This document shows, piece after piece, positions 9,201-42,200 of a DNA stretch of 64,000 nt. Below the pieces are notes generated by a model. The model was not told where the DNA came from. It saw only the letters and a list, made by a program, of their open reading frames with translations, and ran no database searches. The stretch comes from Phoronis australis. Taxonomy: Eukaryota; Animalia; Phoronida. The stretch covers positions 288,876-352,875 of the forward strand of contig NMRA01000450.1 in the NCBI GenBank assembly GCA_002633005.1, given 5' to 3'. Every line of letters begins with the position of its first letter. The stretch's first letter is position 1. A program made the translations under genes and the position numbers.

Positions 9201-12200
9201 GGCTTATTGTTGAATTGCTGAATTTGAGTTTGGTGAATTTGATAATGTCACAATTAATACTTGTCTGTGGTGTTGTTGATGGTGTTACAATAACACACAG
9301 ACCAATGTCAGTAGTTGGTCTATCACAATTTTGACTCTTTATGACCTGACATGTTTACATAACTTTGTTACACTAACCTCCTTACTTATTGATCCCTGAC
9401 ATTAACAACGTTGTACTTCCAGCGGCTGCAGGCTGTGGCGGCCATTACACGGCTGAGTCAGGTGTACTAATCTCACCCAATTACCCTAACCCATATGAGC
9501 ATGACGCCGAGTGTGTGTGGACCATAGAGATTTCACCGGAGACCGAGTCAATCTACTTAACATTCACTAACCTAGAAATAGAGTCGCATTCCTGGTGTGG
9601 TTATGATTTTGTGGAGGTTTGTTTTACTTGGCTTTACCCGCTCTGCTGGTTGTCTGCGTTTGCTTACTTGGCCACCTTGTGACTGGTCAAGTCTGTAACT
9701 TTGAGGAAATTTTTCCCAGACTTCTCCATTTCCTCTGCTGTCCTCTAAGTGTATGTCATACAGTCTCATTTCCCAGAGTTCTCTGTAATGTTCTTCCATC
9801 ACTGCGGTAACATACAGTCTCCTTTCATTGGCAAGTACTTTAATGTGCATGTTAATCTGCCCTGTTTGAATCTTTCAAAATTACCCTTATTGAAACTCAG
9901 GAGGTCAATAAACGGTAACCATTTTTGATCACATATACAACTGTGAAAAGATATATTTTCTGTTTAGGTTTTGTGTGTGTGTTTGGTCAATAAAACTCAA
10001 ATGGTTAAGGGTGGGTGATGTTGATTTATAAATTATGGTAGGGAAGAGGCAAGGGTGCTGCTTATGATCAAAGATACTAAGACCATTTGAATACACAGCT
10101 AGAAAATGTTACTTCAAACAATACATTTACACACTATGATAACATTGTTCGAATTCTTGCTAGTAAAAGATGGCTGCTGTTACCATGACATTCATGTGAC
10201 TTATAACAAATAAAGCAGAGATAACCTGTAGCACTCTAGCTGCCCTGACATGTCCCGCTCCCCACTGTAGCATGCCTCCACTCTAACGTGTCCCCCTCTC
10301 CCTCTAACATACCCCTCTAGCATGTCCCTCTGTGCTTCAACATGTCCCCCTCTCCCTCTGACACGTACTTCTCTCCCTTTCTTTCAGTCGCCTGCTTCAC
10401 TTCTGAACCTTTTTCTGCCTCTCAGTATACCCATCTTTGTTACAGCGGCATCAGGTTGCGGGGGTCACTACACCTCCGACCAAGGAGTGCTTATTTCCCC
10501 TAACTATCCGAACCCTTACTCGCATAATGTGGAATGCGTTTGGACCATCGACATCCCGTCCCGTGGACAGCGCATCATTCTGTCCTTTACAAACCTAGAC
10601 ATTGAGTCACATAGCAACATAGAAGTCTTGCTCAAGCAAAGATGTGCCTGGGATTTTGTGGAGGTAGGATGGAAGGGTCCTGTTGGTGGTATGCAGTGCT
10701 GGCCCTGAATGTGCAGTGGCACCTGTAGGGAAAAGAGCATTTCACTTACCTCGTAGCCACCATAGCAATATACGACGCAGCATCAAGGGCCTTAGGCATC
10801 AACCGATCAAGTGCTAGAACTGTGTGACCCATTTTTATAGAAATGACAAGGTTTAATTAATAGTTAGTTTCAGTATTCAGTCTAAACATTTACACTGTTT
10901 TATGTTTGTGTTAATTTAGATCAAATCTGACCGAGTGTGCTTCACCTTTAGGTGTTATTCGTACCTCATTCTTATGCCATGTTGTTGACTTCTCAGTTTC
11001 ATATATTAGCACTCTCCTGTTGTTCTTCTAATTATCATTTTCCCTACGCTCCGCATGGCAGGTACGCGATGGTATTGATGAGACAGCTGACTTGGTTGGA
11101 CGATATTGTGGCACCCAAGTCCCCGCCCCCTACACCTCGTCCTCCAATCAGCTTTATGTAAGGTTCAAGACAGATTACTCACAGAGCGGTAGCGGGTTCC
11201 GTGCTACTTGGGAAGTTGGTAAGTGACCATTGGTTGATGGTCAGTTGGCTATGTTACTGCTATGGCATGTCATCATAGATGCAGTAAGGCTTGGCACTCA
11301 ACAAGTAACTATGCCTTCAACTTCACAATCTACTTTGCAGATGCTAAAAATGTCAGCATTGAAATTATAAGAGCCTTTCCCCAGTCCCTGTTGTCATAAA
11401 GTCCCTATTAGCCTGTGGTGCTTCTGTCTATAGTTTGGCCACAGACTGACAGCCATTGCAGTTGGTGTATTAAATGGTGCGTGGTGTCTCTTCCTATGCC
11501 CACATTGTACAACCACTTCTTACTGTGTGAAATCATCAGCTACATTGTCGAACCATCTGCTACATTGTCGAACCATCTGCTACATTGTCGAACCATCTGC
11601 TACATTGTCGAACCATCTGCTACATTGTCGAACCATCTGCTACATTGTCGAACCATCTGCTNTACACGGTCAAACCATCTGCTACACGGTCAAACCATCT
11701 GCTACACGGTCAAACCATCTGCTACACGGTCAAACCATCTGCTACACGGTCAAACCATCTGCTACACGGTCAAACCATCTGCTACACGGTCAAACCATCT
11801 GCTACACGGTCAAACCATCTGCTACACGGTCAAACCATCTGCTACACGGTCAAACCATCTGCTACACGGTCAAACCATCTGCTACACGGTCAAACCATCT
11901 GCTACACGGTCAAACCATCTGCTACACGGTCAAACCATCTGCTACACGGTCAAACCATCTGCTACACGGTCAAACCATCTGCTACACGGTCAAACCATCT
12001 GCTACACGGTCAAACCATCTGCTACACGGTCAAACCATCTGCTACACGGTCAAACCATCTGCTACACGGTCAAACCATCTGCTACACGGTCAAACCATCT
12101 GCTACACGGTCAAACCATCTGCTACACGGTCAAACCATCTGCTACACGGTCAAACCATCTGCTACACGGTCAAACCATCTGCTACACGGTCAAACCATCT

Positions 12201-39200: not shown

Positions 39201-42200
39201 GAGGACCAGGTGGTGATCTGGTCGGGCGGTTCTGTGGTAATACCATTCCCGCCAACATCACTGCGTCAAATGTGATCTGGATGCGGTTCCGGTCTAATGC
39301 TGGTATTACTGGTCGAGGATTCCAGGCTTCATACAATAGCTGTAAGTATATGTTGATTGCGGCTTCAGAGCAACATGGCTGACCAGTGGCTACTAAGTTG
39401 CTGGTGGAGTCTGTGATTTGTTGGAAGCTGGCATGGTAAGGCCCAAAATAGCGTAATTGTTTCTGGTCTGTGGTCCTCAAAAATTGATGCAACATCACTG
39501 ACCTGTCCATGTTGCCAAATGAAGAAATTATCTGGGATCATTTCTTTTTCTTTAAACTGTTGGGGGCATGCTTCAAAATGGGTCACGTGCAGACTAGAAC
39601 AAACTGCGCTGTCTTAACCTTACTTCTTCTTTATAAGCCAAAGCGAAACTAGTGATCTGTTGCGGAATTCGTCTTTACTGACTGCATGTCCAAGTTTTGC
39701 AGGTGCCTTGACCCGGATCAGGTAGGTAACTATGTAGCTTACATTTACAGCACCTGTTCTATGGGCTCGTACACATGTTGTGTGCGGTCACTGATGAGTC
39801 TCCACGGAGATGTTATATTCAATAACTCTGATTGTGTTCTAGCCTCTTTGACATCCAGCCGCCAACAGATGGCAGCACGCGCTGTACAGAGGATTACGTC
39901 CTGATTGAGAACATGGTGACCAACGAGCGTGTGGCTCTGTTATGCGGCAGGAACCCACCTGCTCCTTTAACGTCGGCCAATCTGCTAAGGATTACCTTCC
40001 GTTCCGACAATAATGCGACTGGCCAGGGTTTCAGTTTCACTTACAGCTCTTGTGAGTAATGTCTGCTGGCGGTGGATGCTTTGACGCTGGCAGCTGCATG
40101 TGGCTCCTTGTTAACCTGTGCCATGGCACTGGTAGTTGCATGTGTTTCCCGGTAATGGTTTTTAATTTCTTTATTTTTAGGTTGGTATCCTCACCTGTGT
40201 AGACCATTTCTTTCTTTAAGGGCCCTCAACGTGTTCACAGTACATTCACTCGCAGGACTCTCAACATATTTGCAGCACATTCACTCCAGGAGGGCTCTCA
40301 ACACATTCGCACCATATTCACTTCCTTTCACACACTGAGCTTAAGACAGGGAAGAGGGATCACAGGCACAAAACGAGCACAGGATTCAGACTTGGGCCTC
40401 ACAAGTGGGAGTTTGTACGCCATACCCCATGACATCAGGACATCCCTGTGTGTCTCCTTGGTGATAGTTGCTATGGCACCAGTAGTTGCATGTATCTCCT
40501 CTGTGATTTTTTGTACGTCGTTGTTATTTGCTCGCGTTTTCTAGACTGTACCTAGTTGATAGTTGGTTCATGGCGGTATAGTTGCTTTATCTTGACAGTG
40601 TACCATGTGTGATCTGGTAGGTGATTGGGTAAAAAGTACAATCTATGGCTGTCTTTTTATCCATCACTCGCATGATTTAGTGGGTACGTAATGGTTTTCA
40701 CACCTATAAAAATGTCGGGACATTAAAGCTGTTAGGTTTAACAAAGTTTTGCTGACAATCGTAACAAAATTTGGTCATGATGGACCATACCAAGTAGCCA
40801 GTCCACCTGCTTCGTATACTGCAAATATGTTGCCTTAGTCACATGGCTTTTCAAAGTCCCACGAAGTGCTAATTAGGTCAAGCCAAAATCGTAAACTTCA
40901 ACCTGGAATAAATCAAGTTAACGGCAGTGTATCATGTTAAAAATAAAAGAACTCAATTTGCTCTATGTTGTTACCGTATGTAATTTGAAATGCTAATTTG
41001 TTTTAAAACACAAAACACATGGTTACGACCGTACGCCAAGAACATGATTCAAACCAATGGGAATGGGTTTTGACAACAACACGAAAGTCAGTTTTTTCAG
41101 TGATCAGATGCTCCGTCCAAGTTGCATGTTTTCGTGTTATTTTTTAAAAACATTTAATGTTACAAGTAATACTTGTAATAAGTGGTTTCCATTCTCACGA
41201 ACATTCATCTGTTAAAGGCTATGAAAACTGTGGTAGTGGTGTAGATCAATCTCGTTCAATTGGCACTTCAAGACTTCTAAGCATTCTATATTAAGAAGTA
41301 GTCAGACCATTGGTTAATGTGGAATGCTGTATACATGTAGGCCTTTTGGAAAATGTACTCTTATGTTTAGATGAAAGTGTGGTCGGTAAATAACAGATTT
41401 AGCTAAAATTGATTTGACTGAATGTTGTGTATCGATGCATGACATTTCACAATTGATGATAAGGTTTGGAAAGTGTTTGCTTCATCTGTTGCTTGGTGTG
41501 TTTGTGTTACTATGGTAAGTCTTGACCTATTTAGCTCACAGCATGACCTACAAGTGAAATTCTTTGTTAATTTTTTTTCACAAACGTAAAGATTAAGAAC
41601 ATTTTAGTGCTACAGTCACTGATTGTAGAGTGAAGATATCATAGAAAAAAACTTGCTGAAATCCCAATTATTTGCAGAAAAGGTAAACAGCCTTTGAAAA
41701 GTGGAAAAATCGCCATTTTGACAATAATTTTTGTGTGAAACAAGTGGATGATTGCTGTAATTTAAGCATTATTGTTGATATACTAACAATAACCCCATTC
41801 ACACGCTTAATTGAGAAACCCCTGTATTAATTGTTTACCTAAATCCGCTTTTAATTCCGTTAACGCGAGCATTCTCATGTGTTCAATTCCCATTAATGCA
41901 ACCCACTTTTCAAGGCTGCTCCTGTAGTTGACTTGGTAACTGCTACTCTTGTGTTTCTGGAGAGCAATACCAACTGAGTTAAACTAAAAGAATTGGTAAA
42001 AAAATGCTGTCAATAAACCTGTCCTGGATTCACTCCAAGGACCAAATGGGACAGTTCAGCAGCAGCACTTCAAGACCTCTAAAAACACTGAAAACCTTCA
42101 ATAAATTACTTCTAGTCTTCGCCCATTGGGCATACATTACACTTATCACTCCTGGTCCCATACAGCCCTCCAGAGACCTGGGACTCACTTCACAGAGAGA

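Follow-up and report, generated by a model that had tools for sequence, protein, structure and literature searches.

Gene structure and three pairs of half-domain exons

The plus strand of a 64,000-nt stretch of the Phoronis australis genome (contig NMRA01000450.1, positions 288,876 to 352,875 of the forward strand; hereafter the window) carries the central part of one large cubilin gene, from the EGF repeats to CUB22. 48 exon copies were modelled on this strand, all with AG..GT ends. The window opens inside the EGF repeats, and the model runs through the final ones and then through 22 CUB domains, the last of which is cut by the window end. A complete cubilin comprises 8 EGF and 27 CUB domains and an N-terminal region that binds amnionless, with which it takes up ligands in a calcium-dependent manner. 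At CUB3, CUB8 and CUB12, two paralogous exons, named a and b, each code for the same half of the domain and share a single partner exon. Evidence is presented here that all three cassettes are very probably functional and mutually exclusive. The exons concerned and their constitutive neighbours are the following.

7032-7194, plus strand: constitutive exon, C-half of CUB2, upstream of the CUB3 cassette; AG..GT ends; junction 5348>7032 in 9/13/4 reads
9423-9616, plus strand: N-half of CUB3, alternative a (3a); phase 1-0; Pfam CUB positions 1-60, 64 bits; donor score 3.5
10446-10663, plus strand: N-half of CUB3, alternative b (3b); phase 1-0; Pfam CUB positions 1-59, 53.5 bits
11062-11218, plus strand: C-half of CUB3, common to 3a and 3b; AG..GT ends, frame test, RNA depth
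20240-20424, plus strand: N-half of CUB8, alternative a (8a), with a weak donor; phase 1-0; Pfam CUB 60.4 bits
23058-23239, plus strand: N-half of CUB8, alternative b (8b); phase 1-0; Pfam CUB 61.4 bits
24920-25082, plus strand: C-half of CUB8, common to 8a and 8b; AG..GT ends, frame test
37189-37321, plus strand: N-half of CUB12, common to 12a and 12b; spliced to both
39142-39341, plus strand: C-half of CUB12, alternative a (12a); phase 2-1; ancestral-type sequence; junction reads
39843-40051, plus strand: C-half of CUB12, alternative b (12b); phase 2-1; Pfam CUB 31.8 bits; junction reads
43660-43841, plus strand: constitutive exon, N-half of CUB13, downstream of the CUB12 cassette; joined from both 12a and 12b

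All six alternative exons scored above the curated Pfam CUB cut-off of 21.4 (range 31.8-64 bits), and within each pair both exons matched the same half of the profile. The eight models containing one exon of each pair were stop-free from CUB1 to CUB22 (2524-2536 aa). Forms including both exons of a pair, or neither, were frame-shifted at all three cassettes (three forms of each kind), with a stop in the next exon. An earlier, sequence-only reading of this DNA had described paired exons that encode the same half-CUB, are stop-free, have AG..GT sites and equal phases (1-0, 1-0 and 2-1) and share one partner, and had predicted a frame shift when both are included; the description held, and all three double-inclusion forms stopped at once. 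The introns between a and b (829 nt at CUB3, 2633 nt at CUB8 and 501 nt at CUB12) are free of N, and tblastn with all exon peptides found no hidden partner exon between a and b, so that the missing partner exons named by that reading as fatal to it do not lie there. Since 21 open in-phase AG..GT stretches of similar size arise by chance in the introns, the case for the cassettes rests on the CUB match and on reads, not on phase.

The gene model was colinear with a protein of Owenia that UniRef names cubilin (identity of 54.8% across 2555 columns) and with full-length mollusc cubilins (50-54% identity). In a FastTree analysis of the constitutive part (30 rows, with six rows excluded, Amphiura not aligned, and brachiopods and phoronids not sampled), the gene was sister to Owenia with support 1.0, and Owenia cubilin is its closest relative among the sampled proteins; on this tree alone the animal would be placed among the lophotrochozoans, probably with the annelids. 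Human CUBN has the same EGF-then-CUB register, and CUB7 and exon 8a of the window best matched human CUB7 and CUB8, respectively. The CUB7 exon had as top match the third domain of the human CUB5-8 structure (PDB 3KQ4), and the best match of exon 8a in 3KQ4 was human CUB8, with 51.5 bits versus at most 40 for the other domains. The succession of a CUB7 and a CUB8 counterpart fixes the domain register, and with one exon per pair the 22 CUB domains were in register with the cubilins of Owenia, clam, amphioxus and frog, bearing out the cubilin identity and CUB1-22 numbering put forward earlier. A protein search with CUB7 among proteins of 197-2000 residues returned one unrelated fish protein and no cubilin, and no same-species protein was among the 120 matches listed in each of two full-length searches. 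Further exons of the model are:

2038-2177, plus strand: EGF exon that closes the frame at the 5' end; found once by motif scan
2897-3083, plus strand: EGF exon spliced to CUB1 (joint 3083>3584), which places EGF repeats directly before the long CUB array
19094-19432, plus strand: CUB7, a single exon upstream of the CUB8 cassette

At the window end, 63940-63999 showed a weak tblastn match to CUB C-half exons and probably marks where the second CUB22 exon begins.

Use of the alternative exons in RNA

Expression was analyzed in three raw RNA-seq runs (X1, X2 and X3) deposited under the same species label, of which about one fifth each was read, in 151-base reads. One contig set is also available under that label, and the samples carry no tissue label. 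Joints were listed from three reads up. In the CUB12 region (37100-43900) exactly four joints were listed, with 60 junction reads. The shared CUB12 exon was joined to 12a by 8/1/0 reads in X1/X2/X3 (total 9) and to 12b, bridging across 12a, by 3/10/15 reads (total 28). The exon downstream was reached from 12a, bridging across 12b, by 8/2/0 reads (total 10) and from 12b by 4/5/4 reads (total 13). No a-b joint or double skip was found at CUB12 at the three-read threshold, and depth in the a-b intron was zero. The share of 12a among upstream junctions was 73%, 9% and 0% in X1, X2 and X3, and the contrast between X1 and X3 (8:3 vs 0:15) gave a Fisher p of 1e-4, or 1e-3 on distinct read starts. The junctions expected by the sequence-only reading (E25-E26a and E25-E26b in its numbering, and none from a to b) were thus those observed. 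The pair shows the bridging, the lack of joining and the frame shift upon joining by which mutually exclusive exons are recognized in PMC5740500. Combined, these results show that the CUB12 exons are spliced exclusively, in sample-dependent ratios.

In the CUB3 region (2800-11450), 3a and 3b carried reads of the gene's strand only. The stranded depth in X1/X2/X3 was about 9.1/3.1/1.6 for 3a and 5.8/3.8/5.4 for 3b, and that of the shared C-half (11062-11218) about 15.4/6.5/4.6. Summed over the three runs, 3a (13.8) and 3b (15.0) amounted to 28.7, the mean of four constitutive neighbours being 29.1. These values support a complementary use of both CUB3 exons.

Several observations weigh against exclusive use at all three places. 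At CUB12, a-b joins with fewer than three reads would go unlisted, and rare joins are possible. The CUB3 a and b joints were not among the 15 of 48 joints listed, which intronic repeats dominate, and the intron between 3a and 3b showed depths of 1.65 and 1.04 in one bin; the CUB3 depth is therefore support and not proof. Through a strong in-frame acceptor at 10388, 3a and 3b could be joined with the frame kept; a second in-frame cryptic acceptor lies at 22970. At CUB8 exclusive use is likely, as predicted from the exon sequences. Of the mutual exclusivity proposed earlier for the three pairs, the CUB12 part was thus confirmed by junction reads and the CUB3 part supported by depth, while the CUB8 part is predicted from sequence.

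A duplicated stretch of assembly adjoins the CUB12 cassette.

34196-37078, plus strand: repeated assembly of the shared CUB12 N-half exon (34303-34435) and of exon a (36742-36941); 94% identity to 37077-39478

With this copy present, the CUB12 partner and exon a occur twice in the assembly, and the two stretches, 34196-37078 and 37077-39478, abut at a single N (37079). The exons of the two copies differ by one synonymous letter each, and the copy-specific letter was found in 4/13, 1/9 and 0/18 RNA reads of X1, X2 and X3. A true tandem duplication of CUB12 was rejected, since no go-back joint from exon a to the shared CUB12 exon was listed and the distinguishing letter behaved like an allele. 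Loose read ends before 37189-37321 corresponded to the end of the CUB11 exon. The stretch 34196-37078 is most likely an uncollapsed haplotype and not an extra domain, although an annotation pipeline would predict an extra CUB12 at 34196-39478. An element of about 490 bases with short terminal inverted repeats occurs in three copies, 79-86% alike, at 25178-25666, 29711-30179 and 35946-36437; the copy at 35946 is absent from the other haplotype copy.

Divergence and selection within the pairs

Protein identity between a and b was 69% at CUB3, 50% at CUB8 and 29% at CUB12. Synonymous sites were saturated (pS 0.77-0.93), with dN values of 0.23, 0.40 and 0.79, respectively. The pairs are therefore not alleles, in agreement with the earlier view that they are too diverged to be haplotype artefacts. 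All four CUB cysteines were retained in every form, and the preservation of frames, splice sites and cysteines despite saturated dS points to selection on both copies.

The CUB3 and CUB8 exons were reciprocal best matches among the exons of the window. 3a and 3b shared 44 identities with each other versus at most 38 with any of 35 orthologues, which indicates a lineage-specific duplication at CUB3. An in-frame insertion of 24 bases (8 residues) in a loop of 3b was absent from 3a and from all aligned orthologues with letters there. The mutual distance of 8a and 8b equalled their distance to the orthologues (35 compared). At CUB12, 12a was the nearer exon in 33 of 35 orthologues and 12b in none, and the terminal branch was 1.32 for 12b versus 0.29 for 12a. 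The score of 12b against 12a (82) was no better than against the CUB11 exon (83.5), and 12b shares the 2-1 phases of 12a. By these sequence comparisons 12a is the ancestral type and 12b the fast-diverged one. Single-exon trees (six rows excluded) placed 3a and 3b as sisters, with no support value, and left CUB8 and CUB12 unresolved (support 41 and 17).

Properties of the swapped halves

CUB domains that bind calcium do so through one Glu and two Asp (PMC10214685). Intrinsic factor is a ligand of CUB6 and CUB8 of human cubilin, in which consensus calcium sites are present in CUB8 and CUB12 and missing in CUB3 (PMC6283879). Net charges of the a and b exons of the window were -11/-4 at CUB3, -4/-7 at CUB8 and +1/-2 at CUB12, that is, differences of 7, 3 and 3. 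In the alignment of the window's CUB domains, at the positions that we take to be those of the calcium residues, 3a, 3b, 8a and 8b all keep the Glu and the first Asp and differ in the loop between them. The 8-residue insertion of 3b lies in this loop, and 8a is more basic than 8b. The three places read Glu-Asp-Asn in 12a and Gln-Asp-Asp in 12b, neither being the full set. The swapped pieces thus hold loops with predicted calcium-binding acidic residues, and the resulting forms would capture different proteins; a difference in ligand preference between a and b forms is predicted, and we consider it fairly likely. Nothing in the data points to immune recognition in particular.

Choice between the exons

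Each pair would have arisen by tandem duplication. Exon lengths make double inclusion and double skipping frame-shifting, so that nonsense-mediated decay can serve as a backstop, and transcripts with both or neither exon would be removed by it. With introns of 501-2633 nt, donor and branch point are unlikely to hinder each other sterically. In a scan for docking/selector pairing in the near flanks, no cassette had both selectors clearly beyond shuffles, and a single z of -3.1 stemmed from overlapping windows.

Three features were common to the cassettes or to those with RNA data. The a share by depth was 0.61/0.45/0.23 at CUB3 and 0.64/0.19/0.00 at CUB12 (X1/X2/X3), falling from X1 to X2 to X3 at both. 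Donor scores at CUB3/CUB8/CUB12 were 3.5/3.5/5.3 for the a exons and 8.5/6.5/7.2 for the b exons, the constitutive mean being 8.2. GCATG occurred 8 times in total within the 200-nt flanks that precede the three b exons versus 0.74 expected, a count reached in 0 of 1000 shuffles; it was the top 5-mer among those occurring in all three flanks, and was found 15 times in the a-b introns versus 4.1 expected. The richest flank is the following.

22858-23057, plus strand: flank upstream of 8b with 5 GCATG, candidate RBFOX sites by motif count and putative function

Motifs for ESRP, MBNL, NOVA, PTB, QKI and CELF gave nothing below p = 0.02 in 24 tests. RBFOX proteins are described as binding (U)GCAUG, with upstream sites going with repression of an exon and downstream sites with its inclusion (PMC3967051); by this position rule, sites between a and b would favour a. 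The same sample order, the weaker a donors and the GCATG clusters together hint at one shared regulator. Coupling of the choice, at least in part, has a slightly better than even chance, and involvement of RBFOX in it a somewhat less than even one. As a possible mechanism, binding of an RBFOX-type protein to the GCAUG sites between a and b would hold back b and favour use of the weak a donor; the receptor would then be a-rich in cells that have the protein and b-rich in the rest, and one shared switch would set all three cassettes and give mainly two receptor forms.

A number of observations count against such a common switch. A matching order in three samples arises 1 in 6 times by chance, and the CUB3 swing was far smaller than the CUB12 swing. 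Sample genotypes differ (0/4, 0/12 and 13/17 reads at position 39852), so that tissue and genotype are confounded. GCATG was chosen after 8 motifs had been viewed, and 37 of 2000 random flank triples gave some equally extreme 5-mer. Five of the 8 GCATG copies sit in one flank, and 15 further copies lie in introns downstream of b. Moreover, two copies just upstream of 12a and two just downstream of 12b would favour b by the usual rule. Taken as a whole, the proposal of three half-domain pairs, exclusive at CUB12 and likely so at CUB3 and CUB8, governed by one shared switch that yields two forms with a predicted ligand difference, has in our estimate about an even chance of being right.

The sequence-only reading had favoured an independent choice at each of three real cassettes, with up to eight combinatorial receptor forms. 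On the mRNA the cassettes are more than 1 kb from one another, beyond the span of a 151-base read. All eight combinations are open, and the pair identities of 69%, 50% and 29% suggest different ages and hence separate origins. Coupling is also not absolute, since X3 lacked 12a yet showed 3a at about 23% of depth. The two exon sets of C. elegans unc-32 are regulated independently, but only three major forms occur among those possible (PMC3585155). Set against independence are the same order of a shares in two cassettes, the weaker a donor in all three and the common GCATG enrichment. The coupled two-form switch is somewhat likelier than the combinatorial reading, which we regard as doubtful.

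It is improbable that splicing is exclusive but the sample differences are due to genotype, for example to an individual that lacks 12a or fails to splice it, with a and b domains doing a similar job. The three samples do differ at exonic SNPs, X3 has zero 12a reads, and the exons 3a/3b and 8a/8b are about equally distant from orthologues (16:14 and 18:13 of 35). However, neither copy has decayed although synonymous sites are saturated, both exons of the CUB12 pair are used in X1 and in X2 but with reversed proportions, and the fast-diverged 12b remains open and is the major form in two samples.

Still less probable is that one of the pairs at CUB8 and CUB3 does not function as a cassette, with a silent exon or with both exons included via another acceptor. 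This would draw on the CUB8 pair being predicted from sequence, on the absence of the CUB3 joints from those listed, on the in-frame acceptors at 10388 and 22970, and on the 3a and 8a donors, which are as weak as the weakest constitutive donor. Against it, frames, splice sites and CUB motifs are intact despite saturated dS, and 3a and 3b each reach, in stranded reads, about half the depth of a neighbour. Two CUB N-halves in succession would not complete a CUB fold, which counts against double inclusion.

It is barely credible that the pairs result from misassembly or represent halves of additional constitutive CUBs whose partners were lost from the assembly: one false duplication does adjoin the CUB12 cassette, but neither N nor a hidden CUB exon lies between a and b, one exon of each pair gives 22 CUBs in register with four other cubilins, and reads link one shared exon to 12a or 12b, which refutes this for CUB12.

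Comparison with known systems

Homologous mutually exclusive exons arising from tandem duplication are a well-described class (PMC5740500, PMC8373072), and in 60% of human clusters the exon lengths make double inclusion frame-shifting (PMC5740500). The window gene resembles tandem-exon-duplication substitutions in having adjacent homologous exons for the same protein region, with lengths not divisible by three and bridging reads, and is unlike them in having three such pairs in one endocytic receptor. The nearest functional model, more than Dscam, is FGFR IIIb/IIIc, in which a swap of half-domain exons alters ligand affinity by cell type with the participation of RBFOX2 (PMC5703972, PMC3585155). 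In both cases a duplicated exon for half an extracellular domain is swapped; FGFR, however, is a signalling receptor with a single cassette, located in an Ig domain, whereas the window gene has three, in CUB domains, with a putative ligand difference and a putative regulator.

The alternative exons had been likened to those of the Dscam type. In Drosophila Dscam1, several clusters of duplicated exons likewise swap halves of extracellular domains; its clusters have dozens of variants, use docking/selector pairing and are chosen cell by cell. The window gene, unlike Dscam1, has two variants per cluster, no docking/selector pairing found in the near flanks, and ratios that shift by sample; the near-flank scan lends no support to a Dscam-like mechanism.

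No cubilin cassettes of mutually exclusive exons were found in the literature searched, which omitted most subscription papers, and CUBN was not in the supplements of two human catalogues of mutually exclusive exons, a search for which no positive control was run. A described human cubilin isoform is an intestinal truncation after CUB8 via a cryptic exon (PMC12926548) and differs in this from the domain swap of the window gene. Nine cubilin isoforms per sex are reported in abalone, and mutually exclusive exons have 0 occurrences in the main text of that paper (PMC5368703). Among 32 groups (20 + 12) of same-species or same-cluster proteins, no block swap was seen at CUB3, CUB8 or CUB12; annelids were represented in it by single isoforms, each of the two named proteins being alone in its cluster. 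RefSeq isoforms of Branchiostoma (amphioxus), which are database models alone, swap homologous blocks in the C-half of CUB25 and in an EGF exon. The suspicion that such cassettes were undescribed for cubilin thus held for the literature searched, while a half-CUB swap was already present among amphioxus database isoforms. The amphioxus swaps lie at other positions than those of the window gene and probably have independent origins.

P0327/P0331, residues 402-451: amphioxus swap in an EGF exon, whose counterpart in the window (2038-2177) was found once
P0330/P0186, residues 3427-3471: amphioxus swap in the C-half of CUB25

In pairs of mollusc cubilins (oyster, clam, abalone, mussel and two snails), a non-basic N-terminal block takes the place of an Arg-rich one at about residues 180-240. 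The swap resembles an alternative exon conserved in molluscs, and through it a protease site might be gained or lost; the corresponding part of the Phoronis gene falls beyond the window. The pairs are:

P0289/P0175
P0305/P0176
P0180/P0309
P0313/P0181
P0323/P0182
P0394/P0220

Intronic repeats

Intronic repeats at 3904-4475, 5400-5830 and 7547-7802 (the last with 96-nt inverted arms) were covered by RNA on both strands, at depths from the tens to several hundred, with numerous joints that switch strand, and are likely high-copy miniature transposons carried in other transcripts. Tandem repeats lie in introns at 11530-12361 (period 20), 13007-13530 (period 26), 21224-22200 (period 462), 43983-44268 (period 32), 48553-48699 (period 20) and 49340-49580 (period 20). 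Two of the three Ns of the window fall in tandem-repeat arrays.

Implications

Cubilin is usually regarded as a fixed receptor of 27 CUB domains, and for most of its ligands no single binding domain has been assigned. The splicing mechanism described here belongs to a well-known class. Pairs of the same CUB kept by selection, including a pair that corresponds to the intrinsic-factor-binding CUB8, offer natural domain swaps for locating the loops that choose cargo. The bolder view, that one RBFOX-type switch flips three ligand-facing CUBs, CUB8 included, to give two scavenger receptors with different cargo according to cell type, is speculative and on present evidence rather unlikely. If true, it would be a specificity switch like that of FGFR IIIb/IIIc, tripled and placed in an endocytic receptor, and swaps of this kind would have arisen repeatedly in cubilin, as in the EGF exon and CUB25 of amphioxus and the N-terminal block of molluscs. 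Cubilin marks the hindgut across bilaterians (PMC12768270), and the finding suggests that invertebrates tune protein uptake in gut or excretory organs by splicing.

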